From positions 36,038 to 100,037 of the forward strand of contig JAZLBC010000031.1 in the NCBI GenBank assembly GCA_045613505.1: a stretch of 64,000 nt of DNA. Reading direction: 5' to 3'. Shown piece after piece: positions 10,844-64,000 of the stretch. A program made the translations under genes and the position numbers. Below the pieces are notes generated by a model. The model did no database searches. It was not told where the DNA came from and worked only from the letters and a program-made list of their open reading frames with translations. The stretch's first letter is position 1, and the number at the start of each line of letters is the position of its first letter. Source of the stretch: Christensenellaceae bacterium. Its GTDB lineage: Bacteria; Bacillota; Clostridia; Christensenellales; Borkfalkiaceae.

Positions 10844-11494
10844 ATGAAAAAGATTTTACTTATAGGCGATTCGATTAGAATGGGCTACGACAAATACGTT
10901 AAAGAAGCGTTAGACGGCGTTGCAGAAGTTTATTACCCAAAAGAAAACTGCAAAATGGCCGTTTACGTTTTAAGATTTTTACAAGAGTGGATGGAATTTG
11001 AAAAGTGGGATAACGATTTCGATTTAGTGCATATTAACTTTGGGCTATGGGACGTGCTTGAACTTTACGGTGACGAACCGCTTACCCCTATCAACGTTTA
11101 CGCTGATTACGTTAAGCGCATTGATAAACGTATTAGGTTATTATTCCCTAAGGCAAAGGTGGTTTTTGCAACCTCTACGCCGGTTAACGAAGAAAAATGC
11201 CTAGACTGGTTTTCTAGAAAGAACGCAACGATTAAAGCGTACAATCAAACTGCGATAAACGCGCTTAAAGAAATTGACTCTGATACTGTTGTTAACGACC
11301 TTTATGCGCTTTGTGAAACTTTCCCAGACGAATACCACTCAGACGCGGTGCATTTTTACACACCCGAAGCAACTGATAAAATCGGCAAGCAAGTTTTAAG
11401 TTATATTTGCACTATTTTAGATATTCCTGCTAAAAACGTTAACGTTAAAGACTTTAAGCCGGAAAACTACACCAAACAAAACATTGGTGGTTAA
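10844..11494 (+). CDS. SGNH/GDSL-family hydrolase
   Basis: Block I LLIGDSIRMGY. Block V DAVHF (DxxH). AAGGAG RBS. Confidence 0.8.
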   Translation: MKKILLIGDSIRMGYDKYVKEALDGVAEVYYPKENCKMAVYVLRFLQEWMEFEKWDNDFDLVHINFGLWDVLELYGDEPLTPINVYADYVKRIDKRIRLLFPKAKVVFATSTPVNEEKCLDWFSRKNATIKAYNQTAINALKEIDSDTVVNDLYALCETFPDEYHSDAVHFYTPEATDKIGKQVLSYICTILDIPAKNVNVKDFKPENYTKQNIGG

Positions 11495-20200: not shown

Positions 20201-20662
20201 TACGCGTTTATAACCCATAGAAATCAAATTTTTAGAAACGCAAGATAGTGAAATTTCTTGCTCTTTTTTTAAGGTTATCGTTTTAACGCTTTTTGGGTAT
20301 AGCGTGGTAAGTGCTTCGGGCGTTACCACTAAAACGTCCGTTTTCCGTAGGTTTTCTAGTGCTGAAAGCCTTGAATAAAGCCCGTCTTTTGAAAAGGCAC
20401 GCACGAACGAAAAGTTTTGGTCTTTACAAGGCATATAAGTTACGCTTTTGCCGGAAAACTCTTTAATGGCTTTAACTGCCGAAAAAGCCGAAACGGTATC
20501 TTTTGCAACGTATAAAACGGGGCAATCTAGCGTGCCGACTAAAAAATTCTTAAAACTATCCGAAACGCCGAAAACCGCCGTAGGAACACCTAGGCGGACG
20601 CTTTCAGTAAACTCTTTAACCGAGCCGAAATTATTTAGTAGTTGGTTGAGTTTATTTAGCAT
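17255..20662 (-). CDS. mfd: Transcription-repair coupling factor
   Basis: 1135 aa. Walker [20 protein letters not shown] box. Helicase motifs [10 protein letters not shown] and QLKGRVGRS. Conserved pth-mfd linkage. Confidence 0.97.
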
Positions 20663-20689
20663 AAAATACCTTTTGGGGTAGATTATTTT

Positions 20690-21262
20690 TTATTTTATTC
20701 CGTTGTATTTAGAGCCGATTTTAATTATATCCGCCCCGTTAATATATTCGATAAGCGCGTCTGCCGTTTTGTTTACGGCGTTTTCGTAAAGGGGCTTATC
20801 TTCTTTTTGTATGCCCGATAAAACGTAGTTAATTAGTGGAATATTAAATTCGCCCTCGGGCTTAAAACCTATTCTTATACGGCTAAAATCTTCGCTACCG
20901 AGTTCTTTAACGATATTGCGCATACCGTTATGCGTTCCGCTAGAACCCTTTTCGCGTATTCGAAGCGCACCTTTTTTTAGGTCGAAATCGTCGTAGATAA
21001 CTACTAGGTCTTTAAGGTCTATTTTGTAGAAGTTAACTAGTTCTCTAACGCTTTCGCCACTTAAATTCATGTAAGTTAATGGCTTGGCAATTAAAACTTT
21101 TTTTGCGCCCGAGCCACTTTCAGCGATAAGTGCACGGCACTTGGTTTTAGAAAACTCTGCGCCAAGTTTTTCAGCAAGGCGTTCTACCGCCATAAAGCCA
21201 AGGTTATGATAGGTGTTAAGATATTCTTTATCTGGGTTGCCCAGTCCTACAATAAGTTTCAT
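20690..21262 (-). CDS. pth: Peptidyl-tRNA hydrolase
   Basis: MKLIVGLGNPDKEYLNTYHNLGF, then GTHNGMRNI. Confidence 0.95.
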   Translation of the reverse strand: MKLIVGLGNPDKEYLNTYHNLGFMAVERLAEKLGAEFSKTKCRALIAESGSGAKKVLIAKPLTYMNLSGESVRELVNFYKIDLKDLVVIYDDFDLKKGALRIREKGSSGTHNGMRNIVKELGSEDFSRIRIGFKPEGEFNIPLINYVLSGIQKEDKPLYENAVNKTADALIEYINGADIIKIGSKYNGIK

Positions 21263-23940: not shown

Positions 23941-26892
23941 TTAGTTCCCCGTGTATCCCCATACAACTGGGCGGTTAGAATCGTTCCAACTATAATTCCA
24001 TCCACTTGGCTTAGAAGTTGCTTCGCAGTAGATAGTGAGTGAGTAGCAATATTCGAACGCAGCATAACCTATACTTGTTACGCTGTTTGGTATCGTTACG
24101 CTTGTGAGCGAGGTGCAATTATAGAACGCGTAACCACCTATACTTGTTACGCTGTTTGGGATTGTTATGCTTGTGAGTGAGTCGCAAGAATAGAACGCAT
24201 CATCACCTATACTTGTTACGCTATTAGGGATCGTTATACTTTTGAGCGAAGAACAATCATAGAACGCATAATCACCTATACTTGTTACGCTGTTTGGGAT
24301 AGTTATGCTTTTGAGCGAGTAGCAGTTATAGAACGCTTCTGAGCCTATACTTGTTACGCTATAAGTTTTATTTTTATAGGTTACGCTAGACGAGATATTA
24401 GCAGTTGATATATTACTTGATTGTCTTAAAACAGTTGCAACACCGTCTTTTATTCCGTATCTTGTTTCGTTAAATATGGTGTGGATATATCCGTCTTCTG
24501 CCACGTCGTTATTATTGCAATCCCATACTACTGGGCAGTTAGAATAGTTCCAACCACTATTCCAGCCACTTGGCTTAGAAGTTGCTTCGCAGTAGATTGT
24601 GAGCGAGGTGCAATTATAGAACGCATAAGAACCTATACTAGTTACGCTGTTTGGGATAGTTATGCTTGTGAGTGAGTCGCAAGAATAGAACGCATCATAA
24701 CCTATACTAGTTACGCCACTACCTATCGTTACGCTTGTGAGTGAGTCGCAATTAGAGAACGCATAAGAACCTATACTTGTTACGCTATTACCTATCGTTA
24801 CGCTTGTGAGTGAGTCGCAATCAGAGAACGCATAACTATTTATTTTAGTTGCCGTGGTTATATTCGCTTGGGTTACTAATTCACCATTTATATATAACTT
24901 TTTAGCATAATATATTGGATTAGAAATATAATCGCTAAACACTATTTGTGCCCATTGGTCTATAGTGCCTGTATAGTTTACACTTGTTAATTTATTGCAA
25001 TTTTCGAACGCATAATAACCTATACTAGTTACACTGTTTGGTATTGTTACGCTTGTGAGCGAGTCGCAATTATAGAACGCATAATCACCTATACTTGTTA
25101 CGCTATTTGGTATTGTTACGCTTGTTAGCGAGTAGCAATAATAGAACGCACTATCACCTATACTTGTTACGCTATTACCTATCGTTATGCTTGTGAGCGA
25201 GTAGCAATTATAGAACGCACTTTCACCTATACTTGTTACGCTATTTGGGATAGTTATACTTGTTAGCGAGCGACAACCAGAGAACGCACCATCACCTATA
25301 CTTGTTACGCTATAAGTTTTATTTTTATAGGTTACGCTAGACGAGATATTTGCGGTAGTTATATTACTTGATTGTCTTAAAACAGTTGCAACACCGTCTT
25401 TTATTCCGTATCTTGTTTCGTTAAATATGGTGTGGATATATCCGTCTTCTGCCACGTCGTTATTATTGCAATCCCATACTACTGGCGTTTCAGCATTCCA
25501 ACTACTACTCCATCCACTTGGCTTAGAAGTTGCTTCGCAATAGATTGTGAGCAAGTCGCAATTATAGAACGCTTCTGAACCTATACTTGTTACGCTATTA
25601 GGGATCGTTATGCTTGTGAGCGAGTCGCAAATAGAGAACGCAGAAGAACCTATACTTGTTACGCTATTAGGGATCGTTATGCTTGTGAGCGAGTAGCAAT
25701 CTGAGAACGCAGAAGAACCTATACTTGTTACGCTGTTTGGGATCGTTATGCTTGTTAGCGAGTTACAATAACGGAACGCAGAAGAACCTATACTAGTTAC
25801 GCTATTTGGGATAGTTATACTTGTTAGCGAGCGACAACCAGAGAACGCACTTTCACCTATACTTGTTACGCTATAAGTTTTATTTTTATAAGTTACGCTA
25901 GACGGGATATTAGCAGTAGTTAAATCTTTAGATTGTCGTAAAAAAGTTGCAACACCGTCTTTTATTCCGTATCTTGTTTCGTTAAATATGGTGTGGATAT
26001 ATCCGTCTTCTGCCACGTCGTTATTATTGCAGTCCCATACAACTGGGCAGTTAAAATAGTTCCAACCACTAGTCCATCCACTTGGCTTAGAAGTTGCTTC
26101 GCAATAGATTGTTAGTAAGTCGCAATAATAGAACGCTTCTGAGCCTATACTTGTTACGCTGTTTGGGATAGTTATGCTTGTAAGCGAGTCGCAATTAGAG
26201 AACGCTCTATCATCTATACTTGTTACGCTATAAGTTTTATTTTTATAAGTTACGCTAGACGGGATATTTGCGGTAGTTAAATTTTTAGATTGTCTTACTA
26301 CGTTTGCAACGCCGTCTTTTAGCGAGAACCTTATTCCGTCAATTATCCTGTAAACGTATCCGTCTTCTGCCACGTCGTTATTATTGCAGTCCCACACCAC
26401 TGGCGTTTCAGCATTCCAACTGGTATCCCAGTCGGTTGGGATTGATTGCGCCTCGCAATAAATCGTGAGTGTGTCGCAATATGCGAACGCATATTTACCT
26501 ATACTAGTAACGCTGTTTGGGATAGTTATGCTTGTGAGTGAGTCGCATTCAGCGAACGCGTATTCTCCTATACTTGTTATGGTGTTAGGGATTTCTACGC
26601 TAGTTATTATTTCGTTACAGCAAAAGCCTGCATCATCTCCGCCAAGAATACTAGTTACTTTATAGCCGTTAAAGGTTTCGGGTATAACGACTTCTTCGCT
26701 ATCGCCTATGTAACTGGTTACTGCTAATTCTGCGCCGTTTTCGCCTGAAACAAACGAATACACTAAACCTTTAGTGCCAGTAAAAGTTTCTACGACAGGT
26801 TCATCTTCTTTATCGCCACATGCGGTTAAGCCAAGAACTAGCGAACACGCTAGCAACGCTGATAAAACGAGTAATAAAAATTTTTTTCTCAT
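23941..26892 (-). CDS. BspA-type leucine-rich-repeat (LRR_5) surface lipoprotein
   Basis: About 27 units of the type SLTSITIPNSVTSIGxxAFxxC. Lipobox GLTACGDKED. I prefer the ATG at 26892 (AAGGAGaaactttATG) over the track's GTG at 26913. Confidence 0.85.
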   Translation of the reverse strand: MRKKFLLLVLSALLACSLVLGLTACGDKEDEPVVETFTGTKGLVYSFVSGENGAELAVTSYIGDSEEVVIPETFNGYKVTSILGGDDAGFCCNEIITSVEIPNTITSIGEYAFAECDSLTSITIPNSVTSIGKYAFAYCDTLTIYCEAQSIPTDWDTSWNAETPVVWDCNNNDVAEDGYVYRIIDGIRFSLKDGVANVVRQSKNLTTANIPSSVTYKNKTYSVTSIDDRAFSNCDSLTSITIPNSVTSIGSEAFYYCDLLTIYCEATSKPSGWTSGWNYFNCPVVWDCNNNDVAEDGYIHTIFNETRYGIKDGVATFLRQSKDLTTANIPSSVTYKNKTYSVTSIGESAFSGCRSLTSITIPNSVTSIGSSAFRYCNSLTSITIPNSVTSIGSSAFSDCYSLTSITIPNSVTSIGSSAFSICDSLTSITIPNSVTSIGSEAFYNCDLLTIYCEATSKPSGWSSSWNAETPVVWDCNNNDVAEDGYIHTIFNETRYGIKDGVATVLRQSSNITTANISSSVTYKNKTYSVTSIGDGAFSGCRSLTSITIPNSVTSIGESAFYNCYSLTSITIGNSVTSIGDSAFYYCYSLTSVTIPNSVTSIGDYAFYNCDSLTSVTIPNSVTSIGYYAFENCNKLTSVNYTGTIDQWAQIVFSDYISNPIYYAKKLYINGELVTQANITTATKINSYAFSDCDSLTSVTIGNSVTSIGSYAFSNCDSLTSVTIGSGVTSIGYDAFYSCDSLTSITIPNSVTSIGSYAFYNCTSLTIYCEATSKPSGWNSGWNYSNCPVVWDCNNNDVAEDGYIHTIFNETRYGIKDGVATVLRQSSNISTANISSSVTYKNKTYSVTSIGSEAFYNCYSLKSITIPNSVTSIGDYAFYDCSSLKSITIPNSVTSIGDDAFYSCDSLTSITIPNSVTSIGGYAFYNCTSLTSVTIPNSVTSIGYAAFEYCYSLTIYCEATSKPSGWNYSWNDSNRPVVWGYTGN
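24421..24534. repeat. 114-nt intragenic repeat, copy 1
   Basis: Reads identical by eye to 25372-25485 (ttgtcttaaaacagttgcaacaccg...atcccatactactgg). A third, partly diverged copy lies near 25932-26045. Confidence 0.8.
25372..25485. repeat. 114-nt intragenic repeat, copy 2
   Basis: See copy 1 at 24421-24534. Confidence 0.8.
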
Positions 26893-26930
26893 AAAGTTTC
26901 TCCTTTCTTTCACATAAGTAAAGCAACGTT

Positions 26931-40230: not shown

Positions 40231-41478
40231 TTATTTGCCTTTTACTCTGCCTAGCGTTACGTTATCCGTTTTTCTATCTCTTAAAGTTTTTTCTACGCTA
40301 GGGGCTTTTTCGAATCTATAATCTTCGCCGTGCTTTTTAATATATTTATCAATAACAAGGTGCGACGCCACCGTGTTTTCGTTGCCGTTAACTGTTTTTT
40401 GATATTTAAAAAAGTCTGCCGTATTAGGAATTTTGTTTATATCAAAAAGGTCTTCTTTAACGGCAGTTAGTCGAACACTCTTCATTATATCCCTAACGTA
40501 ATCTATATTAGATTGTAGTTTAATAAGAGTTGGGAAATCCGAACCCGTAACGAAAAGTTGTTCCCAATTTCTACCTTCGTATTTATAAAGGATATCACTT
40601 GCTATTCTTAAATGCGTTAGTTCTTGCTCGTAATGTTCTAGCCAAATATCTTTAATGCGCTCGTCGCTTTCTTCCATATAGCACGAATAATATAGGTAGC
40701 ACTCTATATATTCGTGCAATACCCAACGTTCTAGCATAGTGCAAGACGGGTCTATTAAAGAACCGTAGCCCGTAACGTGTTGTTCTTCTATCATAGCAAT
40801 TTCGGAATATAGTTTTCTGCCGATATCGCTAGTATAAAAAGAGCCTACGTTCATATAATAGTTCATCGTTTGTTGCTCTGCCGCGGTTATAATGTTTACG
40901 TGCAGTCTTGTTATCAAAGAATCTTGCCAGTCGTTAATATATCTTCTTATATCGTCGTTGGGGTGGCGATGTTCGGATATAGTTGGTCTTCCTGGGGTAA
41001 TTTCGGTGTATTTGCCAACCAAGGTTTCGCCTTTTATTCCGTGCTCGTTTAATAGTAAGTCGGAATACCTATAAAGGTGATCAAAGTCTTCTAACAAGGC
41101 AAAGTCTAGTTGCGATTTTACAAACAGGTTTGGCTCGTTTTGAGCGATATTTGCAGTTAAATCTACGGCTAGTTGCTCGTAGGCAATAGTGGTTTCTAAA
41201 ATGCTCTCGTTTATAGGTTTAAGTGCCGAAATACGCTTTTGTTGTTGCTGTTCTTGGCGTCTTACTTCGGCTACGACTCTGCGAATTTCGTTGTTTAGGC
41301 AAGACCTATTTAGGTTATGCAGAAACCAGTTGGCTTCAAATTCCGTGCCGTTCATTAAAATAATGCGCGTTTTTGTGTAAGGCGAAGTGGCGTTTTTGTC
41401 GTAAGATTTAGGCGCTAGCCATTTCCAGTTTTTTAGTTCTACTTTCTTTTTTGGGTTAATCTCTTTAAAAGGGTTCAT
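40231..41478 (-). CDS. Ferritin-like di-iron-carboxylate protein, function unknown
   Basis: I place the start at MNPFKEINP (ATG 41478, GGAGG RBS). E / ExxH / E / ExxH ligand pattern: IAYEQLA, LEDFDHLYRY, AAEQQT, IEEQHVTGY. Confidence 0.6.
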   Translation of the reverse strand: MNPFKEINPKKKVELKNWKWLAPKSYDKNATSPYTKTRIILMNGTEFEANWFLHNLNRSCLNNEIRRVVAEVRRQEQQQQKRISALKPINESILETTIAYEQLAVDLTANIAQNEPNLFVKSQLDFALLEDFDHLYRYSDLLLNEHGIKGETLVGKYTEITPGRPTISEHRHPNDDIRRYINDWQDSLITRLHVNIITAAEQQTMNYYMNVGSFYTSDIGRKLYSEIAMIEEQHVTGYGSLIDPSCTMLERWVLHEYIECYLYYSCYMEESDERIKDIWLEHYEQELTHLRIASDILYKYEGRNWEQLFVTGSDFPTLIKLQSNIDYVRDIMKSVRLTAVKEDLFDINKIPNTADFFKYQKTVNGNENTVASHLVIDKYIKKHGEDYRFEKAPSVEKTLRDRKTDNVTLGRVKGK

Positions 41479-41532
41479 AAATTTTCCTCCTGTTTTTAAG
41501 AAGATTATTGCCAACTGAAAAATTTTATATAC

Positions 41533-53617: not shown

Positions 53618-54772
53618 TTATAAGCCTATTCTATTAAATAGTTCTCTTGTTTTATCAACTTGTTCTTTTGTGGTGGTTTTAGTGTTTTTTATAGTAGATT
53701 TTGTGTACGTTCTAGACTTTTTGTTAAATGCTAGGTCGAACCACCTATATATCTGATAGAAAGGAAACAAAATTTTACATTTTTTTAGCGACGGATACTT
53801 TATTGATAGCTCTTTATAATTAACAAAAATCCTAGACAATATATATCTAAATTTTCCACCTTTTTTCGTTTGCTCTACGACAACACGATTCTCTATCGTT
53901 CCGTAAACGCCACCAGTTAAAACGTATTCTTCGAAAGTTTTAAGCGGTTCTTCTAATTCTTCACCGAAAAACCACGTTTTAAGTAGTTTTATAGACGCCG
54001 TTTCAAACGCTTTTAGCCCACCCTTAACTAGCAATTCTTGGGTTTTTTCTCGCGAGAAATCCATTTTTTCTGCGAGCAATGCTAAATCGATAAAAGGTTT
54101 TACACCACATCCACCAGTGCGCATATGCACAGCCATATGAACGATATGATAAACGTAAATCATTTCGTTAGACATGGCGTAGTGATAAGCCTTGCCATCT
54201 AACGTTTTATCCCAAACGGCGCAAAATAAATCTTGCCATTTTTGATCTTCTGTTAGGCTAAAATGAAGTTCCAAACTAATACCGCTTGGCGAGGTTAAAT
54301 TTACGTCGTGCGAGCCGTTATTGCCTTTTTTATACGACAATTCTGCGCATAAAACTTCTATTGCACGCGCTACGTCTTGCTCTTTAACCAAAACGTCTAT
54401 ATCGCAACTAGTGCGCATCCAGGGCTCGTTATAATACTTTCTAATAAGACTGCCTTTTAATGGCATAAACGGAATTTTTGACTTTTCTAAAACGGCGCAA
54501 ATTTGCTCTAATTCATACTCTAAAAGTTCGTGGCGATAATATGCCGTGTTGCGCGACTTTATAAAGCGTTTCACGATGGTTTCTTCGCCAACAAGCACAC
54601 CGTTTTTATCAAGCGAATCGCATACTAGATGTGCCAAATCGTGCTTTTTAGAAAGATTATACAGACTTGGCAAAATTTCAGGCGTTATTAAATTTTTTGT
54701 TTCGCCTAGGTCAAAACCAAAAACGGCGTTTCTAACCAAAGCAAAAAATACGTTAAGCAGTGTATTTTTCAT
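53618..54772 (-). CDS. Uncharacterised nucleotidyltransferase family protein (NTP_transf_5-like)
   Basis: FMPLKGSLIRKYYNEPWMRTSCDIDVLV matches the conserved core of this family as I recall it. Confidence 0.6.
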   Translation of the reverse strand: MKNTLLNVFFALVRNAVFGFDLGETKNLITPEILPSLYNLSKKHDLAHLVCDSLDKNGVLVGEETIVKRFIKSRNTAYYRHELLEYELEQICAVLEKSKIPFMPLKGSLIRKYYNEPWMRTSCDIDVLVKEQDVARAIEVLCAELSYKKGNNGSHDVNLTSPSGISLELHFSLTEDQKWQDLFCAVWDKTLDGKAYHYAMSNEMIYVYHIVHMAVHMRTGGCGVKPFIDLALLAEKMDFSREKTQELLVKGGLKAFETASIKLLKTWFFGEELEEPLKTFEEYVLTGGVYGTIENRVVVEQTKKGGKFRYILSRIFVNYKELSIKYPSLKKCKILFPFYQIYRWFDLAFNKKSRTYTKSTIKNTKTTTKEQVDKTRELFNRIGL

Positions 54773-54795: not shown

Positions 54796-55890
54796 TTATT
54801 CCTTTTCTAAAATGTCTGCAATTCGCTTACATGCAAAGCCGTCGCCGTAAGGGTTGCTTGCCTTTGCCATTTTTTCGTAAGCGTCTTTGTCTTCTAGTAA
54901 TAACTTAAAGTTTTTATATATAACTTCTTCGTTCGTTCCGACAAGTTTAAGCGTTCCTGCCTTAATCCCTTCTGGGCGTTCGGTAGTATCACGCATAACT
55001 AGAACGGGTTTGCCAAGCGACGGCGCTTCTTCTTGAATACCGCCACTATCGGTTAAAATTAGATAACTGCGCGCCAAAAAGTTATGGAAGTCTAAAACTT
55101 CTAGCGGTTCGATTATTCGTATTCTATCAAAACCGCCTAGTTCTTCTTCGGCGGCTTTTCTAACTACTGGGTTCATGTGTATAGGATAAATGGCTTTAAG
55201 GTCTTTGTGTTCTTCCATTACCCTACGAATAGCCCTAAACATATTGTGCATAGGCTTTCCTTGATTTTCACGCCTATGCGCCGTTATCATAATCAAACGG
55301 CTATCTTTTGCCCACTCTAGTTCGGGGTGTGTATAGTCTTTGCGAACGGTGGTTTTTAGCGCGTCTATCGCGGTGTTCCCCGTTACGAAAATGCTATCCT
55401 TATCTCTACCTTCTTTTATAAGATTATCGCGCGAAAGATTGGTTGGCGCAAAATTGTATTTAGAAATTACCGACACTGCTTGGCGGTTAAATTCTTCTGG
55501 ATAAGGGCTATAAATGTTATAGGTGCGTAGCCCCGCTTCTACGTGGCCGACAGGGATTTGCAAGTAAAAACATGCAAGCGCCGTTACGAAGGTGGTAGAC
55601 GTATCGCCATGAACTAACACAACGTCTGGCTTTACTTCTTCTAACACTTCTTTTATTCTATTTAAAATATTCGTAGTGATGTCAAATAAGGTTTGCTTAT
55701 CTTTCATAATAGATAAGTCGTAGTCTGGCGTTACTGAAAACGCTTCTAAAACTTGGTCTAACATTTGACGATGTTGCCCCGTAACGCAAACTATCGTTTT
55801 AACGTTCTTTCTAGTTTTTAGTTCGTTAACTAACGGACACATTTTTATTGCTTCGGGTCTTGTACCGAACACAAGCATAACTTTTTTCAT
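54796..55890 (-). CDS. wecB: UDP-N-acetylglucosamine 2-epimerase (non-hydrolysing)
   Basis: VFGTRPEAIKMCPLV, VHGDTSTT and DSGGIQEEAPSLGKPVLVMRDTTERPE. Confidence 0.93.
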   Translation of the reverse strand: MKKVMLVFGTRPEAIKMCPLVNELKTRKNVKTIVCVTGQHRQMLDQVLEAFSVTPDYDLSIMKDKQTLFDITTNILNRIKEVLEEVKPDVVLVHGDTSTTFVTALACFYLQIPVGHVEAGLRTYNIYSPYPEEFNRQAVSVISKYNFAPTNLSRDNLIKEGRDKDSIFVTGNTAIDALKTTVRKDYTHPELEWAKDSRLIMITAHRRENQGKPMHNMFRAIRRVMEEHKDLKAIYPIHMNPVVRKAAEEELGGFDRIRIIEPLEVLDFHNFLARSYLILTDSGGIQEEAPSLGKPVLVMRDTTERPEGIKAGTLKLVGTNEEVIYKNFKLLLEDKDAYEKMAKASNPYGDGFACKRIADILEKE

Positions 55891-55911: not shown

Positions 55912-56586
55912 TTAGTAGGTTGTTTCGCCGTTATGAGTAATTAAAGAAACAGCGCAAACATATTCAATTTTCTCTAAATCTTGAACTATCGTATTATTAT
56001 CTGGAACACGCACCTCAATCACCAAAGAATACGAGTCTTTAGATAAATTTTTTGATTTAATCTTATATTTTAGCGACTTGCTGTTTAAATATTGCACGAT
56101 TTTTTCTTCAATAGAAGAACTCGTGCCATTTACGACCAAGATTTGCGGTGATCTTACTTCTTTAACCTTTGATAAAACAACTATCACTATGGTTAAAACT
56201 ACTGATAATATAATTGCAAATTCAGCAAAACCTGCACCGCAAATTATACCGACAGATATCGACCAGAATAGATAAACTAAATCCATCGGGTCTTTTATTG
56301 CCGTTCTAAATCTCACGATTGATAGCGCACCAACCATACCTAAAGAAATTACTATGCTTGATTGAACGGTAAAAATAATAGAAGCAGTTATAAGAGCCGT
56401 TGCAACTAAAGAAATACTAAAACTTAATGAATAGAATATTTTTTTAGTTGTTACTCTATAAATCAAGAAAATGTAACAGCCTATAAGCGCTGTTATTGCT
56501 AACGTTACTACTACAAATAATGTAGTTATGTCCGCAGGTTGATATCCTTCTAAAAATGTTTTCTTAAAAATTTCGCTAAACGTCAT
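55912..56586 (-). CDS. DUF4956-family membrane protein
   Basis: SLGMVGALSIVRFRTAIKDPMDLVYLFWSISVGIICGAG matches the DUF4956 core. AAGGAG RBS inside the 3' end of the CotH gene (11-nt overlap). Confidence 0.75.
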   Translation of the reverse strand: MTFSEIFKKTFLEGYQPADITTLFVVVTLAITALIGCYIFLIYRVTTKKIFYSLSFSISLVATALITASIIFTVQSSIVISLGMVGALSIVRFRTAIKDPMDLVYLFWSISVGIICGAGFAEFAIILSVVLTIVIVVLSKVKEVRSPQILVVNGTSSSIEEKIVQYLNSKSLKYKIKSKNLSKDSYSLVIEVRVPDNNTIVQDLEKIEYVCAVSLITHNGETTY

Positions 56587-58525
56587 TTTTATTTCTCCTT
56601 AACAAAAATTTTGTTACGTATACTATTAGCACGACTATAAATATCACTGCAAAAATTAATTCTATAACAACTATGCTCACCTTTAATTTAAGCACGTTAA
56701 GAATTGATGTCGGCGTTTTTACCCAGGTCGCTTGCAGTGTGACATCTGACTCTATGGGCTTGCTAAAATCAAATGGAAGCCCACTTGCTTTATCTTTCCA
56801 CCCATTAAAAACGTAGCCATCTCGAACGTATTGTGGCATCTGGCTTTCTAACATTGTTTCGCCAGGTTTTAGATAAAAATACACCTTATTCTGCCACTCA
56901 CTCTCTATAGTAACGTTAAAATACTTGTTTCCTGAAAGCCACTGTTCGCTTAAAAAAGAAACTCTTTCTCGCATCCAGATTTTAATGTCTTCGCAACTTT
57001 TATAAAAGTCTTCTCTATCCCACCTGACTTCGTCTATAACGCTAGAAGCCAAATTAGTATTGTATAAAGCATCGAACTTTGTATTTAAAAGTTCATTAAT
57101 AAGTGGCAAAAGCAAGTTTTTATACGCAATTTTTACACCTTCGTTAAATTCGGTATGGGTTAAAAGTCTTTCATACCAATCAGTACTATAATCATTAGCA
57201 TTCAACTTAGTTATATATTTAGAATTTCCCTTAAAAGCACCCTCGAAGTCCCAACCCGGTCCAGCCGTTAATTTATCGTTAACGTCTTTATAATAATACG
57301 CGCTAGAACGCCCTGCATCATTAAAATTTAAGAACTCTTCTATTACATATTTTATAATAAAAGAATCTAAATCTAAATATTCGGTATAATGTTTTCCCGT
57401 CTTAGTATTATAGCCACTTTTATTAGAAATAGCGTCATAAGTTTCTTGCATATAACTGTGGATATAATCGACTTCGCGTTTTCCGGCATGTTTTGGGCCT
57501 TTAATAACGAAATGGTCCCCTGAATTAAGAATAAAACCTGAAACTTCGTCTTTATAATATTCAGGAACGTCGCGTTCTAAAAAGAATCCACCAGTAACGT
57601 TTTCAGGCTCGTTTATCCAAAGAACGCCCTTAGACATGCCGTCTTCTGCTTGATATTTCTTTACTTCGTTTATTTTTTGATTAGGGTTTAATTGTGCATT
57701 TATATCTTGTAGGTTAGTTATATTTATACTATTTTTACTAACCGTTATTTGCTCGCACAATATATAGTTACCCACACAATCACCATTTAGGTATAAATCA
57801 ACGTGCCTGCAATTAGGAACATATTTTACGCCCATATTTTGAGACAACCAAAATGCGATCGTGTTTGATAAATAGTTACTTCTTGCATTTGCTATCAAAA
57901 GATAAGTGTTAGAAGGTTTTAAATCTAGCATCGTTATTTCTTGGTCGAATTCTAATTTATAACCTTTTTTCTCACAACCCGTCCAAGAAGTGTTGCCTCT
58001 TCCTTGCATACGAAGATCACCCTTGATTGATTGCCCATTCCCTTCTAAAAGAGAAAAAACTCCCTTTTCAGAATTACCCTTTACGGCATGCACATATTCC
58101 ATAGAGCCACTTTTTGTGTTTATAAAGAGCGAAGGTATTTCTTTTGATTGCATAAATATAAATTTACTTTCTATAAGTTTATTTTTATATTTAACTCTAA
58201 AATCATATTCTTGTTCCAACGATATATCGCTAATCTGATAACGCACGCCGACCTGTAAATCATTTATTTCCGCTTCTACGTTTTGATTGCTAGTTAACGT
58301 TAAACTTTTAATATTCGATGGTAAAAACACGTAAACAGCATTTTCTTTTTCATAACACTTAATGTTTTCTGTAAAACCATCTGTTTCAATTTCAACACCA
58401 ACCAAATCACTAATCTTCGCTTCTTGCTTCTGAAAAAGCAAAACCGCAACGAATAAAAGTATCGAAAATATTACGATACCTAGCGTTGCCAATATTAACG
58501 ATTTGTTGATTTTACTATTTTTCAT
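56576..58525 (-). CDS. CotH-family atypical kinase-like protein with N- and C-terminal TM helices and a Listeria-Bacteroides (Flg_new) repeat
   Basis: CotH-like block YLLIANARSNYLSNTIAFWLSQNMGVKYVPNCRHVDLYLNGDCVGNYILCEQI. YVFNGWKDKASGLPFDFSKPIESDVTLQATW looks like a Flg_new repeat. The ATG at 58525 overlaps the VTC TGA (ATGA). The track start at 58531 is a TTG. Confidence 0.8.
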   Translation of the reverse strand: MKNSKINKSLILATLGIVIFSILLFVAVLLFQKQEAKISDLVGVEIETDGFTENIKCYEKENAVYVFLPSNIKSLTLTSNQNVEAEINDLQVGVRYQISDISLEQEYDFRVKYKNKLIESKFIFMQSKEIPSLFINTKSGSMEYVHAVKGNSEKGVFSLLEGNGQSIKGDLRMQGRGNTSWTGCEKKGYKLEFDQEITMLDLKPSNTYLLIANARSNYLSNTIAFWLSQNMGVKYVPNCRHVDLYLNGDCVGNYILCEQITVSKNSINITNLQDINAQLNPNQKINEVKKYQAEDGMSKGVLWINEPENVTGGFFLERDVPEYYKDEVSGFILNSGDHFVIKGPKHAGKREVDYIHSYMQETYDAISNKSGYNTKTGKHYTEYLDLDSFIIKYVIEEFLNFNDAGRSSAYYYKDVNDKLTAGPGWDFEGAFKGNSKYITKLNANDYSTDWYERLLTHTEFNEGVKIAYKNLLLPLINELLNTKFDALYNTNLASSVIDEVRWDREDFYKSCEDIKIWMRERVSFLSEQWLSGNKYFNVTIESEWQNKVYFYLKPGETMLESQMPQYVRDGYVFNGWKDKASGLPFDFSKPIESDVTLQATWVKTPTSILNVLKLKVSIVVIELIFAVIFIVVLIVYVTKFLLRRNKNDV

Positions 58526-59232
58526 AAACAAAAAGTGTCTCCAAGGGTTGAAAACTTTTTACACAAATAAAATTTAGAAAAGCTCGTTCGGTTGCCCGTA
58601 ACAGATTTAATTACGTTTTCTATATGTTTTGGCAAAAACTCGTCGTATTTAACCTCTAAAACAAGCATGTCTTGTTGCAAGATTGGCTTTTTAGCATATA
58701 TTTTATCAAAAAAACCACCAAAATCCCGCGAAGAAGAAACGTTAACGTCAAAAGTAATGCGCACATTACCTAAAGCAAACGTATACGGCACACGATCGTA
58801 ATCAACTATCACGTCTGGTTTCAATAATTTGGTTTGACGTACTATTTCAAATTTTTTTAAAAGAGGCGGAAGTTGATTAAAACAATCCAAAAGTTCTCCT
58901 GCCATTATTTTTTTGTATTGCCCTAAAGACAGCTCGCACTGAAACTTTTGCGTCATAGACTTTTCTTTGCGTTTTAATTCCAAGCGAATAAAATCACTAT
59001 TTCCATCGTAGATACGTATCCTGAATTTTTCTCTGGGGTCAACACCGTTCTCATTCTCGTAATAGCAAGTATTATAATAATCGTCGAAATAAATACTTCT
59101 TATATTGTAACTATCGCCCCTTAGGTGCTTATCTTTTTGCATCAGCCCTAACAAAGAATTCTCTATTGTTATCCTTTGCTGATTGCTTATAATAAATTTT
59201 AATTCATGGCGAAATTTCGATTGTTTCTCCAT
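58522..59232 (-). CDS. VTC-domain (polyphosphate polymerase tunnel-fold) protein
   Basis: FRHELKF, IRSIYFDD, REKFRIRIY, LELKRKEK, VRITFD, LEVKYDEFLP and SFSKFYLC follow the bacterial VTC-domain pattern. Confidence 0.78.
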   Translation of the reverse strand: MEKQSKFRHELKFIISNQQRITIENSLLGLMQKDKHLRGDSYNIRSIYFDDYYNTCYYENENGVDPREKFRIRIYDGNSDFIRLELKRKEKSMTQKFQCELSLGQYKKIMAGELLDCFNQLPPLLKKFEIVRQTKLLKPDVIVDYDRVPYTFALGNVRITFDVNVSSSRDFGGFFDKIYAKKPILQQDMLVLEVKYDEFLPKHIENVIKSVTGNRTSFSKFYLCKKFSTLGDTFCL

Positions 59233-59867
59233 TACTTTTCCCCTTGAGAATCTGCCAACTTGCGGATCAATTTTGCAGGATTACCCGCAATAACGCAATT
59301 GCCTTCTGGAAAAGATTTCGTTACTACCGAACCTGCCCCTACAACCGTATGATCGCCAAGTTCTACGCCAGGCAATATCACGCTGTTCATGCCTATCCAA
59401 CATTTTTTTCCTATTTTTACGTCTTTACCGGATGCCGGTTTGGTTAAATCATTAAAATCGTGATTAGCGGTAATTATACCAACGTTTACTGCTATAAAGG
59501 TTCCCTTCCCTATATAGATATGCGCATCTGAAGCAGCTTGAAAATATCCTGGCTTTGTAAAAAGTGAAATATCGTTTATATCAAAATGGATGTTTTCCCA
59601 ATTCAAAAGTTTCATTTGCGGGTCGCACGGGAAAGGCAGATGACGTTGATTACCTAAAACTTTTTGTCTAAAAAAAGTATGAACAACAAATCTCCAACCG
59701 GCACTATATTTGTATTTATGAAAATGAACGCCTTTTAGATATTTTCTTTTATAAAAAATGTGCCCGATAAGCCATGCTATTTGTCGTTTTAAAAAACTAA
59801 TACCCCCGCGAAATATTCTCTTTAATCTACGCTTTCTCTGTTTCCTCATCAACCGAATCCTCCACAC
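59232..59867 (-). CDS. Hexapeptide-repeat (LbH) sugar O-acetyltransferase
   Basis: [49 protein letters not shown]. The start is uncertain: as given the ORF overlaps the upstream flippase gene by 41 nt. Confidence 0.75.
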
Positions 59868-61353
59868 CTTCTTTAGTGCTTAAATGCTTCCACGAGCATT
59901 TTATTGTCTTTTTATTTACAAATAAATAAGCAAGCGCCCATACTATACCAAGTCCTATGGAAATCAAAATCGAAATTGTTCTGTCGTCCGTAGTAAAAAG
60001 ATACTTCTTTATCAAATAAAACGCACAACCAAATAAAAGCGTTTCTAAAATAAAAATACCCAAATTCTTCCAAGGAAAAATCTTTACAATAGAAATCTTT
60101 AGTAGACTACAAGTTACGAACAACTGCGCGAACGCCATAATGTTTATTACTGTTAAACTTGCCCATGCAGGCCCAGTAAAACCAAACAAGTAGTAGAACC
60201 CAATATTAAATATACAATTAAGCAAAAGCGTTAAAATCGAACTATAAAATATAAACCTCGTTTTACCTAGCGCGTTTAACACTATTCCCCAGTAAGTTGA
60301 TTTAAATAGTAAAATTAGAGTATATATTCTAAAAACGGCAACTCCATCTGAAGTAACATATTTTTCGGAGTAAAAAAGCGACATAACGTCCGGTGCAAAA
60401 ACTACAAATCCCCCGACGATTAAGCACATTACGCAAAACGAAATATTTATCGAACTATCCCATAAACTAACGGCTTGTTCATTATTACCACCCTTTAATA
60501 GTCTTACAAATTTTGGCAATAAAACGGTGGATAAAGATGTTGCTAAAACAGTAACTGGTAGAGTTTTAGCCGCATTTGCAAAAATAGCGTATTGTTCCGT
60601 AGTAAAAAACTTACCTATTATAAGCTTATCAAGCTCACCATTAAGCGTTCCAACCGATGATGCAAGCCCGATAGGGATAGCAAACGTGAATATGTTTTTT
60701 AATAATTTTCTATCTATAATTAGTTTTAGCCCGTGGGCAATTTTAACTATCCAACACACCGCAAAAATTGCAAAAATAAGCATAGAAGCCATATACATTG
60801 CGGTGTAAATTTTAAAATTACACGATAAAAACTGAGCAACTAAAAGAATTACTAGGTTTACAACTGCATGTACAACGTTAAATAAAAGTAGTTTACTAGA
60901 TTTACCATAAACGACACACACGTTAGATAAACTATTTATCATTATACTCGCCCAAGGATAAATTGCAAATATATAAGCAAACGTAGTGATATACGGGTTA
61001 TTAAAATAAGATTTTATAAGAGGCAAGCAAATAAATAATATTCCGCCGATTAGGGCCGTAAGTAGAGTGCTTAATACTAAATATAAAGTGATAAATTTTT
61101 GTTTTTCTTCTTCTGTATCGGCTTTTGCAACGAAATAATTAACGCTACTTGGAAGTCCTAAAAGCAAAATAGTAGAAACAAGGTCGGTAATCATTATTAT
61201 TTGCGAAAAAGTCCCGTACTCGTTAAGCGTTCTAAAGCGTGCTAAAAGCATAGACGTTATTACGCCTATTACTGAAACCATAAAATTTGAAATTGTAAGA
61301 GTAACAGCGTCTTTAGCAACTGAAGACGCGCTTTTCCTCATCTTTTTGATCAC
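59827..61353 (-). CDS. Wzx-like oligosaccharide flippase (MOP superfamily)
   Basis: 508 aa with about 14 TM segments. Typical polysaccharide-locus context. Confidence 0.7.
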
Positions 61354-61378: not shown

Positions 61379-62575
61379 TTATTTTTTAAAAGTCTTTAAA
61401 AATCTCTTTTTTATTTTTTTAGGACACAACTTTAATATTGCCCTAGCGATAACTTGTTTTTTGTTTATTTTCTTTACGACTGGCGAAGTTGTATATTTTA
61501 GTATTGTGTTCTCTCCACCTAAAGTTTTGTAATCGTTAAAAAACACTTCTCTATTACTAGCCTTACCAGTTTGCCTAAAAAATAGCGGATTGTATTTCTT
61601 TACGTGTTCTATGTCATATTCTTTTATAATTGCATATTTCTTCATGTTTTCTAACACTACTTCACCTTTTTTCGTGTTAGTAACAACGGTTGAATAATTG
61701 TAATTACTACCAATTAATTCTGGAAAAATTGATTGAACGTTTTTACAGTCTGCAATAGTTAAATCACCTTTTCTGTTGCTCGTTCTGTATATGCAATTTT
61801 GCGCACAGGATGGTCTTAAACAATCTTGATTTAAAAATAGTTGCATATATCTTTCGTCCACCACGTAAAGTTTTTTATTATTGCTAAAAGATAGTTTAAC
61901 AAGATACGGCGTCTCGTACATTATTCTCTTTGCTCTAAATTCGTATTCAACGACCTTTGCATTGAAATCTTTTTCAGCAATATCAATACAATCAGTAAAA
62001 ACTTTAGGACTACCCTCTCCGTGGCAGATTAAATCTATCAATAAAAGATTTTCATAATCTTTACCCAAGAAAGCCTTTAACCCTGCAACTTGACAAGGCG
62101 TGCCACAAAAAATGGCTTTTTTGCCATCTAAAAGCGCCTCCTTAATGATTTTATAGCAATCGTTTACGTTGCTTGCAACGTATTTAGACTTTCTTAGCGG
62201 TGCGATGTTTTCAACGCCTTTAACTACGACATGTTCTACGTTAAACCCATTAAAAACAGCGCCTGATATCATGGTGTTAGCATCGCCGTATGCGTTGCAA
62301 ATCTCTGAAAATGCGCCACCTGAAGCGCTTTTTTTCCAAACCCTTTTGCTCTTACTTAGAACACAATATGCTTTTTGTGTAACCGTTGGCACGCTAACAA
62401 CTTTATTTAAAGACGGACAAATCCTTTCGCATTTTCCGCATTTTCCACATGAGTCTAATACCCTAGGATACAAAAAGCCCTCTTCGTCTTTTTCCATAAC
62501 TATGCTATTAGTAGGACAAGCCGAATAACAGGCCGAACACCCAGTACATTTAGTTTTATCTAAATCTGTTAACAT
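61379..62575 (-). CDS. FrhB-like (coenzyme F420 hydrogenase/dehydrogenase beta-subunit family) protein with 2x[4Fe-4S] ferredoxin motifs
   Basis: CTGCSACYSACP and CGKCGKCERICP. Size and pairing with a pyruvyl transferase fit the family commonly seen in polysaccharide loci. Confidence 0.65.
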   Translation of the reverse strand: MLTDLDKTKCTGCSACYSACPTNSIVMEKDEEGFLYPRVLDSCGKCGKCERICPSLNKVVSVPTVTQKAYCVLSKSKRVWKKSASGGAFSEICNAYGDANTMISGAVFNGFNVEHVVVKGVENIAPLRKSKYVASNVNDCYKIIKEALLDGKKAIFCGTPCQVAGLKAFLGKDYENLLLIDLICHGEGSPKVFTDCIDIAEKDFNAKVVEYEFRAKRIMYETPYLVKLSFSNNKKLYVVDERYMQLFLNQDCLRPSCAQNCIYRTSNRKGDLTIADCKNVQSIFPELIGSNYNYSTVVTNTKKGEVVLENMKKYAIIKEYDIEHVKKYNPLFFRQTGKASNREVFFNDYKTLGGENTILKYTTSPVVKKINKKQVIARAILKLCPKKIKKRFLKTFKK

Positions 62576-63688
62576 CTATTCTCCCAACGCATCAAACAAA
62601 AACGATAGAGATTTCTCTCTTAATTCTTTTAGTTTGTCTTGTACTTTTTGATAATTAAGCGGTGGCACGTCGAAACTTTTCACGTCGCCACTTACAATTC
62701 TGTCGCCTATAGAAAAATAATCAACTAATTGATAAATCCTTGAATTTTGATTTACGGGGTCGTTTTCGCTAAATCTTTCATAAGTGATAAAGCGTTTTTC
62801 ATACAAAGTAGAAAAAATAGTTGCGTGGTAAGAATCTGTAACAACGGTATGCGCTTTACTTATTAACCATAAAAATTCTCTTGGTCCAATATATTTAGTC
62901 ACATCGTACATGTAAGTAGCGTCGTCTGTTTTAAGAGAGTACCCAATAATTTGTAAGCCATTTCTCTTTGCATAATCAATCACGCTTTTTTGGTAATTGT
63001 TTTGCGAGTTAAGAAAATAGCAGAAAATAAATGGTTTTTCAAAATCAAAATCTAAATCAGTAGGTTTTCTTTGAATTTTCTTCCAATCTAAAACGTCTAA
63101 CATTAAGGTTGGATCTGCAACCACGGTTGAAGATATCTTACATTCTTTATCTAAAAGTTCCCTTCCCTTTTCTTCTCTAACGGACACTGCACTAAAATCA
63201 CTTAAAAGGTCGTGATAAGACGTTTTTAGTTCTTCTTTAATATAGTTTAATCCTATGCTAGCCGCATACGAAATTTTTTTTACGTTTTTTGGTACAAAAT
63301 CTAAAAAGTAAACGGGGTCAAAAACACTTGGCGCCCAAATTTGATCACTTCCACATATTATTGCATCAAACTTCTTCGCAACTTTTTTTAGTTTTTCTTT
63401 CGAAGTAAAACTTTTACCTAGATTAAGATAGTCATTATGAAATCTTAAAAATGGATATGTAATTCTTCGACCTAAAAACTTACCTTTTTTTGAAAACAAG
63501 TAAGAAACCACTAATCTACAATTATTCCTAAATGCGTTAGGTTTTCCGTGCCTTGCGCTTCTATAATTTATAATGCGAACTTTTGCTTTTTTCCCTTTGC
63601 AATTCTTTATAGTTTGTCTTAAAGCATACGATTGTAACGCACTCCCAAAATTTAGATAGTAATGCCAAGTTAATATGCCTATCTTCAT
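62576..63688 (-). CDS. Polysaccharide pyruvyl transferase family protein
   Basis: MKIGILTWHYYLNFGSALQSYAL N-terminus and a C-terminal TDSYHATIF block. Zero-nt gap to the FrhB-like gene. Confidence 0.75.
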   Translation of the reverse strand: MKIGILTWHYYLNFGSALQSYALRQTIKNCKGKKAKVRIINYRSARHGKPNAFRNNCRLVVSYLFSKKGKFLGRRITYPFLRFHNDYLNLGKSFTSKEKLKKVAKKFDAIICGSDQIWAPSVFDPVYFLDFVPKNVKKISYAASIGLNYIKEELKTSYHDLLSDFSAVSVREEKGRELLDKECKISSTVVADPTLMLDVLDWKKIQRKPTDLDFDFEKPFIFCYFLNSQNNYQKSVIDYAKRNGLQIIGYSLKTDDATYMYDVTKYIGPREFLWLISKAHTVVTDSYHATIFSTLYEKRFITYERFSENDPVNQNSRIYQLVDYFSIGDRIVSGDVKSFDVPPLNYQKVQDKLKELREKSLSFLFDALGE

Positions 63689-64000
63689 TATTTTTTACCA
63701 TTAACCTTTTGAATTACTTTTTTCCACCTATTTTTCCACGATTCATAAGAAAATCCTTGCTTTACCGTTTCATAGGCGTTGTCTGCAATAGTTTTTCTAA
63801 CGTTTTCGTTTTCTATAAGGTAAGAAATTTTTTCTTCTAACTCTTCTGAATTTCTTTCGGTAAACAAGCCGTTAAAACCATCTAATACAATGTTCGATAG
63901 CCCTCCTGCGTCCGTGCAAATTACAGCGCACCTAGCAGACATTGCTTCTAATAAAGAAAGTGAAGTACCTTCAGAACCTATAGTTGGAACTAATGCTATA
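63688..64000 (-). CDS. Glycosyltransferase family 4 (GT-B), C-terminal part only; N-terminus beyond the right window edge (partial)
   Basis: The frame stays open to the window edge: ...IALVPTIGSEGTSLSLLEAMSARCAVICTDAGGLSNIV. This is the E(x7)E-type GT4 motif region. Confidence 0.8.
   Translation of the reverse strand, partial: IALVPTIGSEGTSLSLLEAMSARCAVICTDAGGLSNIVLDGFNGLFTERNSEELEEKISYLIENENVRKTIADNAYETVKQGFSYESWKNRWKKVIQKVNGKK

Follow-up and report, generated by a model that had tools for sequence, protein, structure and literature searches.

Within a 64,000-nt stretch of a Christensenellaceae bacterium contig (JAZLBC010000031.1, positions 36,038 to 100,037; hereafter the window), three consecutive genes on the minus strand (55912-59232) encode a VTC-domain protein of 236 aa (58522-59232), a CotH-family kinase-like protein of 649 aa (56576-58525), and a DUF4956 protein of 224 aa (55912-56586). 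RefSeq lists such proteins as "polyphosphate polymerase domain-containing protein", "CotH kinase family protein", and "DUF4956 domain-containing protein", respectively. An earlier reading of the DNA (the original prediction) had assigned all three families from the sequence alone, and each assignment was borne out by a Pfam score above the gathering cutoff: 113.7 bits for VTC (PF09359, cutoff 23, E 1.3e-32, profile positions 1-228 of 235), 81.9 bits for CotH (PF08757, cutoff 23.8, E 7.8e-23), and 47.2 bits for DUF4956 (PF16316, cutoff 30.6, E 2.7e-12), with 30 of 30 DUF4956 homologues matching as well. We find that the linkage of the three genes is far beyond chance and that it is common outside the Pel exopolysaccharide loci to which it had been thought confined. 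We further propose, tentatively and with somewhat less than even confidence, that the trio is one module delivering cytoplasmic phosphoryl groups to the cell surface, in which polyphosphate would be made inside the cell, exported, and used by CotH outside.

The linkage was surveyed with a VTC profile scan of one genome per species, from which the best 80 of more than 522 relatives were analyzed. The trio is common among bacteria of the gut. Clostridia predominate in the set, Erysipelotrichales account for some members, and Bacteroidales and Treponema are represented by one each; the nearest relatives belong to uncultured Clostridia, Acutalibacteraceae, and Faecousia metagenome-assembled genomes. 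A DUF4956 gene lies downstream of the VTC gene in all 80 loci, directly so except in four that have CotH between them (L001-L003 and L075). CotH adjacency could be assessed in the 72 loci with enough upstream sequence and was found in 67, of which 63 were detected by our own CotH hidden Markov model (HMM), one lies on the opposite strand, and three encode divergent Fn3_assoc-CHB_HEX_C-CotH proteins that our HMM missed and Pfam recovered (L044, L065, and L075). The five true exceptions comprise L073 and four loci (L021, L022, L035, and L064) in which the VTC-DUF4956 pair sits between glgC/glgD and pth-mfd, at around 4.8-13.5 kb of each locus. This site is a housekeeping setting beside glycogen synthesis (ADP-glucose pyrophosphorylase); the window has its own pth-mfd genes at 17255-21262, with no adjoining VTC-DUF4956 pair. 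In the reverse survey, which started from CotH, a VTC gene was present within 6 kb in 26 of 80 metagenome loci. Since the VTC-DUF4956 pairing is unbroken and CotH often occurs elsewhere, VTC and DUF4956 constitute the invariant core, while CotH is a frequent but not obligatory third member. The usual gene order is CotH-VTC-DUF4956. The window order, VTC-CotH-DUF4956, recurs in L001-L003, L075, L081, and L086, and both VTC-DUF4956-CotH and CotH-DUF4956-VTC were found as well; that every order exists is what selection acting on the entire unit would lead one to expect. Many Lachnospiraceae loci carry two to four tandem CotH paralogues before a single VTC-DUF4956 pair, as if sharing one supply unit (L013, 1178-7993; also L008, L015, L026, L029, L033, L040, L042, L054, and L074).

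The genomic settings of the trio are diverse. In the closest relatives (L081 and L001-L003), the genes for a Wzx flippase, one or more hexapeptide transferases, VTC, CotH, DUF4956, and a 2-epimerase end a glycosyltransferase-rich cluster; the hexapeptide acetyltransferase upstream and the 2-epimerase downstream are kept in all four, and Wzx is conserved upstream in L002, L003, and L081. In L083, L085, and about 28 of the 80 loci, two GT2 genes lie downstream of CotH-VTC-DUF4956, together with genes for a Bac_transf priming enzyme and an LCP ligase; this is a wall-glycopolymer type of locus, to which L083 adds Wzm/Wzt (ABC) transporter genes. The trio stands alone in L084 and lies within a further exopolysaccharide cluster on a Pseudobutyrivibrio plasmid. 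On a Planococcus maritimus plasmid (L167, 5389-12090), VTC, DUF4956, and CotH are followed by a hypothetical protein of ~690 aa, a HEAT-repeat protein, and a glycosyltransferase, the latter setting being of a chitin-synthase-like (synthase) type. The same six-gene layout is found in NELoc-2, the necrotic-enteritis pathogenicity locus of C. perfringens (PMC2879425). The DUF4956 genes of NELoc-2 were annotated in 2010 as "tubulin/FtsZ GTPase" (PMC2879425), which appears to be a mis-annotation. A further setting comes from the literature: Whitfield et al. (2020) described an accessory group of cotH, a polyphosphate polymerase, DUF4956, and DUF4832 genes contiguous with pelDEADAFG in streptococci and clostridia, as well as a bifidobacterial variant in which DUF4832 is replaced (PMC7112168). 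Thus, the trio rides with at least four glycan assembly routes, namely Wzx, LCP/Bac_transf, synthase type, and Pel, and such independence of the route would suit a step located outside the cell, after export. A 2025 mBio study stated that the synteny of the trio was not found outside pel loci (PMC12345266); contrary to that statement, we observe that it is common there.

The original prediction regarded the three genes as one translationally coupled module. Its three gene overlaps were recovered when the minus strand was read directly: the acetyltransferase stop codon TAA (59234-59232) overlaps the VTC start codon ATG (59232-59230) by 1 nt in TAATG, the VTC stop codon TGA (58524-58522) and the CotH start codon ATG (58525-58523) share ATGA, and the CotH stop codon TAG (56578-56576) lies within an 11-nt overlap (56576-56586) that begins at the DUF4956 start codon ATG (56586-56584), which is preceded by AAGGAGA 7 nt upstream. 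An alternative in-frame TTG start for CotH exists at 58531, and the public 649-aa protein (P0121) starts at the ATG. However, overlapping or abutting ends are found at five of the operon's nine junctions, among them those between Wzx and the acetyltransferase and between the glycosyltransferase and the pyruvyl transferase, and the tight packing therefore characterizes the operon at large rather than the trio. Hence the module survives in its VTC-DUF4956 core, with CotH not obligatory and the overlaps carrying no special weight. The packing across the operon is also what would be expected if the three were unrelated neighbors brought together by chance in a compact operon. Against this stand the adjacency counts (80/80 for VTC-DUF4956 and 67/72 for CotH), which hold in all gene orders and at least four genomic contexts, and a linkage that spans Clostridia, Erysipelotrichales, Bacteroidales, Treponema, Bacilli, and plasmids. 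Conserved co-occurrence of this kind, which the original prediction had asked for, excludes chance adjacency, and we give that explanation almost no credence.

The survey also bears upon an explanation in which VTC and DUF4956 are self-contained and would make and export polyphosphate as a product in its own right, acting as a surface or matrix counter-ion, a cross-linker, or a phosphate store. CotH would then be an optional accessory that attaches or anchors polyphosphate to a glycan or protein, or that acts on other targets with another donor. The invariant pairing of VTC with DUF4956, the dispensability of CotH in the pairs beside glgCD and pth-mfd, and the fact that most CotH relatives lack an adjacent VTC all fit such an arrangement, as does the conservation of all polymerase residues described below; the cationic Pel of the literature loci would presumably suit an anionic partner polymer. 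However, CotH is adjacent in 93% of the assessable loci, is translationally coupled to both partners here, and is inserted between VTC and DUF4956 in the window sub-family, which speaks against this explanation. Moreover, the window polysaccharide is probably anionic already, given a pyruvyl transferase in the operon, and deletion of the VTC gene in S. intermedius gave no matrix phenotype. Overall, we consider polyphosphate export for its own sake unlikely.

The VTC protein is predicted to be a soluble cytoplasmic triphosphate-tunnel polyphosphate polymerase. A profile of 26 VTC homologues matches yeast Vtc4 (3g3q, E 7.7e-9), and residues were mapped through the alignment of these homologues (A1), with Vtc4 positions counted in the native numbering of chain 8i6v_E. 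The residues by which Vtc4 binds triphosphate and Mn2+, whose mutation lowers polyphosphate content (bioRxiv 10.1101/2023.01.27.525886), all have counterparts in the window protein. K200 corresponds to K12, conserved in at least 90% of the aligned sequences, while R264 (R71), R266 (R73), K281 (K87), Y359 (Y145), R361 (R147), the Mn ligand E426 (E193), S457 (S219), and K458 (K220) are each invariant in the 26 homologues. K458 has been reported as the one residue by which active Vtc4 differs from Vtc2/3, which are inactive. Features peculiar to the bacterial proteins are seen too, since their first strand reads R8-H9-E10-L11-K12 where Vtc4 has R-Q-T-T-K, and they possess a loop, C56-x-x-E59-N60-E61-x-G63, that is not in yeast Vtc4. 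Both motifs are at least 90% conserved among bacterial VTC proteins, several positions being invariant, and they may mark a different metal site or a docking surface for DUF4956. We detected no hydrophobic segment, SPX domain, Vtc1-type membrane domain, or other Pfam domain in the window protein. The family comprises 9,609 clusters at 50% identity, of which the top 150 representatives all stand alone (165-286 aa, ~230 aa typically), and no fusion of VTC with DUF4956 or CotH was present among these 150 or among 308 close homologues. Our literature search found no report of enzymatic activity for any bacterial VTC-domain protein. Single-sequence searches of the PDB with the VTC, CotH, and DUF4956 proteins gave nothing usable, and profiles were required.

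The CotH protein appears to place an intact kinase-like domain on the other side of the membrane. Its AlphaFold2 (AF2) model has a mean predicted local distance difference test (pLDDT) score of 87.9 and matches B. cereus CotH in Foldseek (5jd9/5jda, E 6e-13, TM-score 0.66-0.70 on the target). From the N-terminus, the protein consists of a membrane anchor (58433-58498; hydrophobic core aa 10-31, Kyte-Doolittle peak 2.99, AF2 helix aa 4-32), a beta-sandwich seen in the AF2 model (aa 42-137), the kinase-like catalytic domain defined by Pfam, Foldseek, and profile alignment (56951-58000, about aa 140-530), a B-repeat of the Flg_new/InlB type (56717-56920, aa 536-603), and a C-terminal membrane helix followed by RRNKNDV (56582-56704, aa 608-648; Kyte-Doolittle peak 3.31, also a helix in the AF2 model), all encoded on the minus strand. 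The Flg_new repeat that had been claimed scores below the Pfam gathering cutoff (E 7.6e-5, 23.2 versus 27), but its B-repeat fold is supported by a Foldseek match to the InlB B-repeat (2y5p, E 1.8e-3, TM-score 0.75-0.80). Within the catalytic domain, profile alignment to 5jd9 equates D403 (codon 57319-57317) with the catalytic aspartate D224 of B. cereus, kept in 27 of 31 sequences, and D426 (codon 57250-57248) with the metal-binding aspartate D247, kept in 31 of 31; mutation of the equivalent residues in B. subtilis CotH, D228 and D251, inactivates the kinase (PMC7821199). The motifs R176-G177-N178 and K186-K187 are also present, the former in 31 of 31 sequences. The residues expected of an active tunnel and of an active kinase-like site were thus found on alignment in both proteins.

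Two transmembrane helices had been proposed for CotH, and hydrophobic segments do occur at aa 5-36 and 606-645. The sequence before the first helix, MKNSKINKS, carries a charge of +3, with two positive and three negative residues after the helix, and the C-terminal tail is +4/-1, basic tails being conserved in homologues P0122-P0146. A basic N-terminus together with a basic C-terminal tail implies that both ends lie inside and that the catalytic part lies outside. From hydrophobicity, the positive-inside rule, and the types of domain present, we therefore predict an extracellular catalytic domain held between two membrane anchors, as the original prediction had it, with an ectodomain of ~570 aa (aa 37-605) rather than roughly 590 aa. 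Some 27 homologues, with identities as low as 34%, retain the two anchors, while more distant relatives have the N-terminal hydrophobic segment only. CotH relatives bear modules found at the surface (SLH, dockerin, ricin, Fn3_assoc, and CHB_HEX_C). A separate comparison set metagenome loci whose CotH has the C-terminal helix (L086, L099, L114, L125-L129, and L137) against the other loci of L087-L165; VTC was adjacent in 5 of 5 assessable loci with the helix and 10 of 43 without it (Fisher p 0.002), several of these contigs being near-duplicates. This count, near-duplicates included, is only a hint that the C-terminal helix contacts DUF4956 in the membrane.

For DUF4956, the AF2 model (pLDDT 68) has five helices (aa 22-49, 54-74, 80-96, 100-117, and 121-140) followed by a cytoplasmic beta-alpha-beta-beta-alpha-beta domain resembling ACT (aa ~148-216). 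Loop charges fit an N-terminus outside and a C-terminus inside, with the five predicted membrane helices spanning aa ~21-140. Foldseek matched the C-terminal domain to ACT domains and to the C-terminal domain of MgtC (2lqj, TM-score 0.64 on the target, E 1e-2). The Pfam MgtC model (PF02308) aligned over nearly its whole length (E 3.8e-4, 21.2 bits, cutoff 31.4), a sub-threshold match that recurs in 10 of 30 DUF4956 homologues, and the NCBIfam MgtC/SapB model (NF007431) aligned over aa 75-214 (E 4.3e-5, 23.2 bits versus a cutoff of 214). With both scores below the curated cutoffs, the profiles and the model together point to distant kinship with MgtC/SapB, and not to membership of that family. 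The most conserved stretch, S-L-G-M-V-G-A-L-S-I-V-R-F-R-T-A-I-K-D-P, extends from the third helix into a basic loop in the cytoplasm, and contains the invariant loop SIVRFRTAIKDP (S89-I-V-R92-F-R94-T-A-I-K98-D-P) that DUF4956 proteins have as their own on the cytoplasmic side. A profile search of the PDB with DUF4956 found no solved relative. Descent from the yeast VTC channel was considered and rejected, as there was neither a Pfam DUF202 match nor a Foldseek match to the chains of 8i6v/7ytj. Consequently, DUF4956, which matches the Vtc1/3/4 membrane chains in neither sequence nor fold, could be called a translocase by analogy only. The original idea of a split bacterial counterpart of the yeast complex therefore stands for the tunnel enzyme, which is Vtc4-like, and falls for the membrane partner, which is MgtC-like and not a VTC membrane domain by descent.

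Kinship with MgtC also raises the question of whether the trio is instead a regulatory or phosphate-homeostasis module. In that case, the MgtC-like protein, in the manner of Salmonella MgtC, would modulate a partner enzyme or the balance of ATP or phosphate, with metabolite sensing assigned to its ACT-like domain. A tri- or polyphosphate signal would be bound or hydrolyzed by the tunnel protein, and CotH would phosphorylate, or simply bind, proteins that set polysaccharide output. ACT-like domains are typical of ligand-sensing regulators, and E10 is retained in the first tunnel strand. Genetic data from Pel-producing bacteria are also relevant, and they supersede the earlier statement that the trio had no experimental characterization, which is out of date given the genomic description of 2020 (PMC7112168) and the deletions that followed. 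In S. intermedius, each of SIR_1594-1592 has been deleted (2025 mBio, PMC12345266): Pel levels rose without the DUF4956 homologue and fell without the CotH homologue, and in sputum medium either of these deletions reduced aggregation to less than half, while the VTC deletion (SIR_1593) had no aggregation phenotype (PMC12345266). Those authors noted a possible link of the trio to phosphate metabolism (PMC12345266), and regulation of Pel synthesis by protein phosphorylation, with a regulatory role for the kinase, had been proposed before (PMC7112168). Opposite shifts in Pel together with a silent VTC deletion would suit a regulatory role. However, an outward-facing kinase is poorly placed to reach cytoplasmic synthesis enzymes and has no obvious supply of ATP, the full set of polymerase residues is strictly conserved, including the K458 equivalent, and unrelated assembly pathways would each require different regulatory targets. 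We regard a regulatory or phosphate-homeostasis module as quite unlikely.

The phosphoryl relay that we favor, as the simplest reading of the trio, would combine these elements as follows. At the cytoplasmic face of the membrane, the triphosphate tunnel of the VTC protein would make polyphosphate, or a short oligophosphate, from ATP. DUF4956, which probably oligomerizes, would dock the polymerase via its basic cytoplasmic loops and ACT-like domain, and would pass or present the polyanion across the membrane. The CotH domain, lying outside where ATP is unavailable, would phosphorylate a surface substrate with polyphosphate as the donor, and the substrate here would most likely be the Wzx-exported, acetylated, and pyruvylated polysaccharide of the flanking genes, or alternatively a cell-wall protein. 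What suggests this reading is the combination of an intact polymerase site inside, a constant membrane partner, and an intact kinase-like domain outside without ATP, all co-encoded and portable. The finding that loss of the S. intermedius CotH or DUF4956 homologue alters the Pel level and halves aggregation (PMC12345266) is in its favor. The conserved residues, the topology, and the linkage come from the tests described above, whereas every biochemical step of the relay, from polymerase activity and transport by DUF4956 to polyphosphate as the CotH donor and the nature of the CotH substrate, is one that we infer. The original prediction had named four points upon which such a relay could fail, namely the family assignments, the topology, the co-occurrence, and the catalytic residues, and none of the four spoke against it.

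Several observations do weigh against the relay. A linear pathway should give the same phenotype for all three deletions, and is disfavored by the silent VTC deletion and by the opposite shifts in Pel that follow loss of CotH and DUF4956. VTC lies within 6 kb of just 26 of 80 related CotH genes, and the existence of CotH-less pairs between glgCD and pth-mfd implies that the pair has a role of its own. The membrane helices of DUF4956 contain no charged residues, and neither its sequence nor its fold resembles the VTC channel. In the tunnel protein, E10, a threonine in Vtc4, is reminiscent of the ExExK motif, which is characteristic of triphosphate-hydrolyzing tunnel enzymes. B. subtilis CotH is taken to use ATP, and we know of no polyphosphate-dependent CotH member; B. 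subtilis CotH, the only CotH enzyme for which we found a reported activity, is a protein Ser/Thr kinase (PMC7821199). In its most specific form, the proposal holds that a Vtc4-like enzyme and an MgtC-fold protein constitute a bacterial polyphosphate synthase-exporter and that the outward-facing CotH proteins are polyphosphate-dependent ectokinases for surface glycans or proteins. This version is doubtful at present. Our literature search found no proposal of polyphosphate as the donor for an extracellular CotH.

If the relay does operate, it would explain the source of a phosphoryl donor for secreted kinases of the CotH type, which gut Firmicutes and Bacteroidota have in abundance and which find no ATP outside the cell, and it would give a role to thousands of bacterial VTC-domain proteins and to the MgtC/SapB membrane fold. 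The trio would then be a portable kit for phosphorylating cell-surface polymers, compatible with Wzx, ABC/LCP, synthase, and Pel pathways alike; its occurrences include NELoc-2 of C. perfringens and the pel cluster of S. intermedius. If true, the ectokinase version would mean that extracellular phosphorylation can be powered in a novel way, that bacteria have a polyphosphate route independent of PPK, and that the MgtC/SapB fold has a first transport-type biochemical role. Even without any mechanism, the survey corrects the published pel-only statement of synteny and shows the VTC-DUF4956 core to be invariant.

The operon around the trio is compact and lies on the minus strand, entering from beyond the window edge at 64000 and ending at a terminator-like hairpin (53620-53588; a 15-pair stem followed by a T-run on the minus strand). 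In the direction of transcription, it begins with a glycosyltransferase fragment at the window edge (ending at 63688) and continues with a polysaccharide pyruvyl transferase (62576-63688, Pfam), an FrhB-like iron-sulfur protein (61379-62575, Pfam), a Wzx-type polysaccharide flippase (59827-61353, Polysacc_synt E 9e-19), and a hexapeptide-repeat acetyltransferase (59232-59867, Hexapep E 3.6e-12), which precedes VTC. After the trio come a UDP-N-acetylglucosamine 2-epimerase (54796-55890, Epimerase_2 E 1.5e-124), 21 nt downstream of DUF4956, and the last gene, an uncharacterized nucleotidyltransferase of the NTP_transf_5 family (53618-54772, E 1.9e-39). Among the 80 VTC-locus relatives, the NTP_transf_5 gene is kept in the closest relative (L001) alone. 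Given the pyruvyl transferase, the exported polysaccharide is probably anionic. The succession of a pyruvyl transferase and a 4Fe-4S ferredoxin plus FrhB_FdhB_C (F420-hydrogenase-beta-like) protein at 61379-63688 is repeated in the trio-bearing exopolysaccharide locus of the Pseudobutyrivibrio xylanivorans plasmid (L166, 15265-17511). Promoter-like sites numbered 46 in the sequence versus 41.5 in shuffled sequence, so no internal promoter can be claimed. Neither pelDEADAFG nor a DUF4832 hydrolase is present among the operon neighbors within the window, the operon continuing past its edge at 64000. The rest of the window is ordinary chromosome with mfd, pth, prs, ruvABC, tgt, queA, glutamine synthetase III, and other genes. 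It also encodes a 990-aa BspA-type leucine-rich-repeat protein (23941-26913, minus strand, LRR_5 E 1.7e-177), probably a surface protein, and three open reading frames without a Pfam match at E 1e-5, of 645, 427, and 216 aa (15181-17118 and 40231-41514 on the minus strand, 10844-11494 on the plus strand).

Comparison with known systems places the trio closest to the Pel accessory group, in which the three families are likewise contiguous on one strand beside exopolysaccharide genes, CotH is predicted to be extracytoplasmic, and DUF4956 has also been described as an MgtC-like membrane domain with a cytoplasmic ACT domain. However, the window operon has no pel genes or DUF4832 hydrolase, and is instead Wzx-dependent with acetyl and pyruvyl transferases. 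The order differs as well (CotH-VTC-DUF4956 in the Pel group versus VTC-CotH-DUF4956 in the window), and the Pel-group CotH has a signal peptide and an FN3 domain where the window CotH has two membrane anchors and a B-repeat. The yeast VTC complex (Vtc4/Vtc3/Vtc1) shares the tunnel-domain family, its triphosphate-binding residues and Mn ligand, and a polymerase genetically tied to a membrane protein, but the window VTC is a separate soluble protein without SPX, and the three-helix Vtc1-type membrane partner of yeast has no detectable relation to the five-helix MgtC-like partner here. Bacillus CotH (5jd9/5jda) has the same fold and the same catalytic and metal-binding aspartates as the window CotH at ~13% identity. 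It has no membrane segments, however, and acts in the ATP-containing cytoplasm of the mother cell upon the coat substrates CotB and CotG, whereas the window CotH is a 649-aa membrane-anchored ectoprotein with an extra beta-sandwich and B-repeat in an operon and organism unrelated to sporulation. MgtC/SapB/YhiD proteins share with DUF4956 the five membrane helices, the ensuing cytoplasmic ACT-like domain, and a weak but consistent profile similarity over both parts, but DUF4956 scores below the Pfam and NCBIfam cutoffs and has SIVRFRTAIKDP as an invariant loop of its own. Salmonella MgtC is a regulator of ATP synthase and PhoR, and not the partner of a tunnel enzyme. In its layout, the trio also recalls the Dlt system of D-alanylation and the AlgI/J/F/X and PatA/B systems of O-acetylation, each of which is encoded as a set linked to glycan loci, with an activating enzyme in the cytoplasm, a polytopic protein in the membrane, and a transferase facing outward. 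This likeness is by analogy only, as the families and the chemistry are unrelated, and we know of no phosphoryl version of such a layout that has been demonstrated. The window thus holds a variant in which CotH is inserted between the core genes, doubly anchored, and equipped with a B-repeat, in a Wzx-dependent pyruvylating operon without pel genes. The trio itself was already in the literature, and what is added here is its invariant VTC-DUF4956 core and its independence from the assembly pathway that it accompanies.

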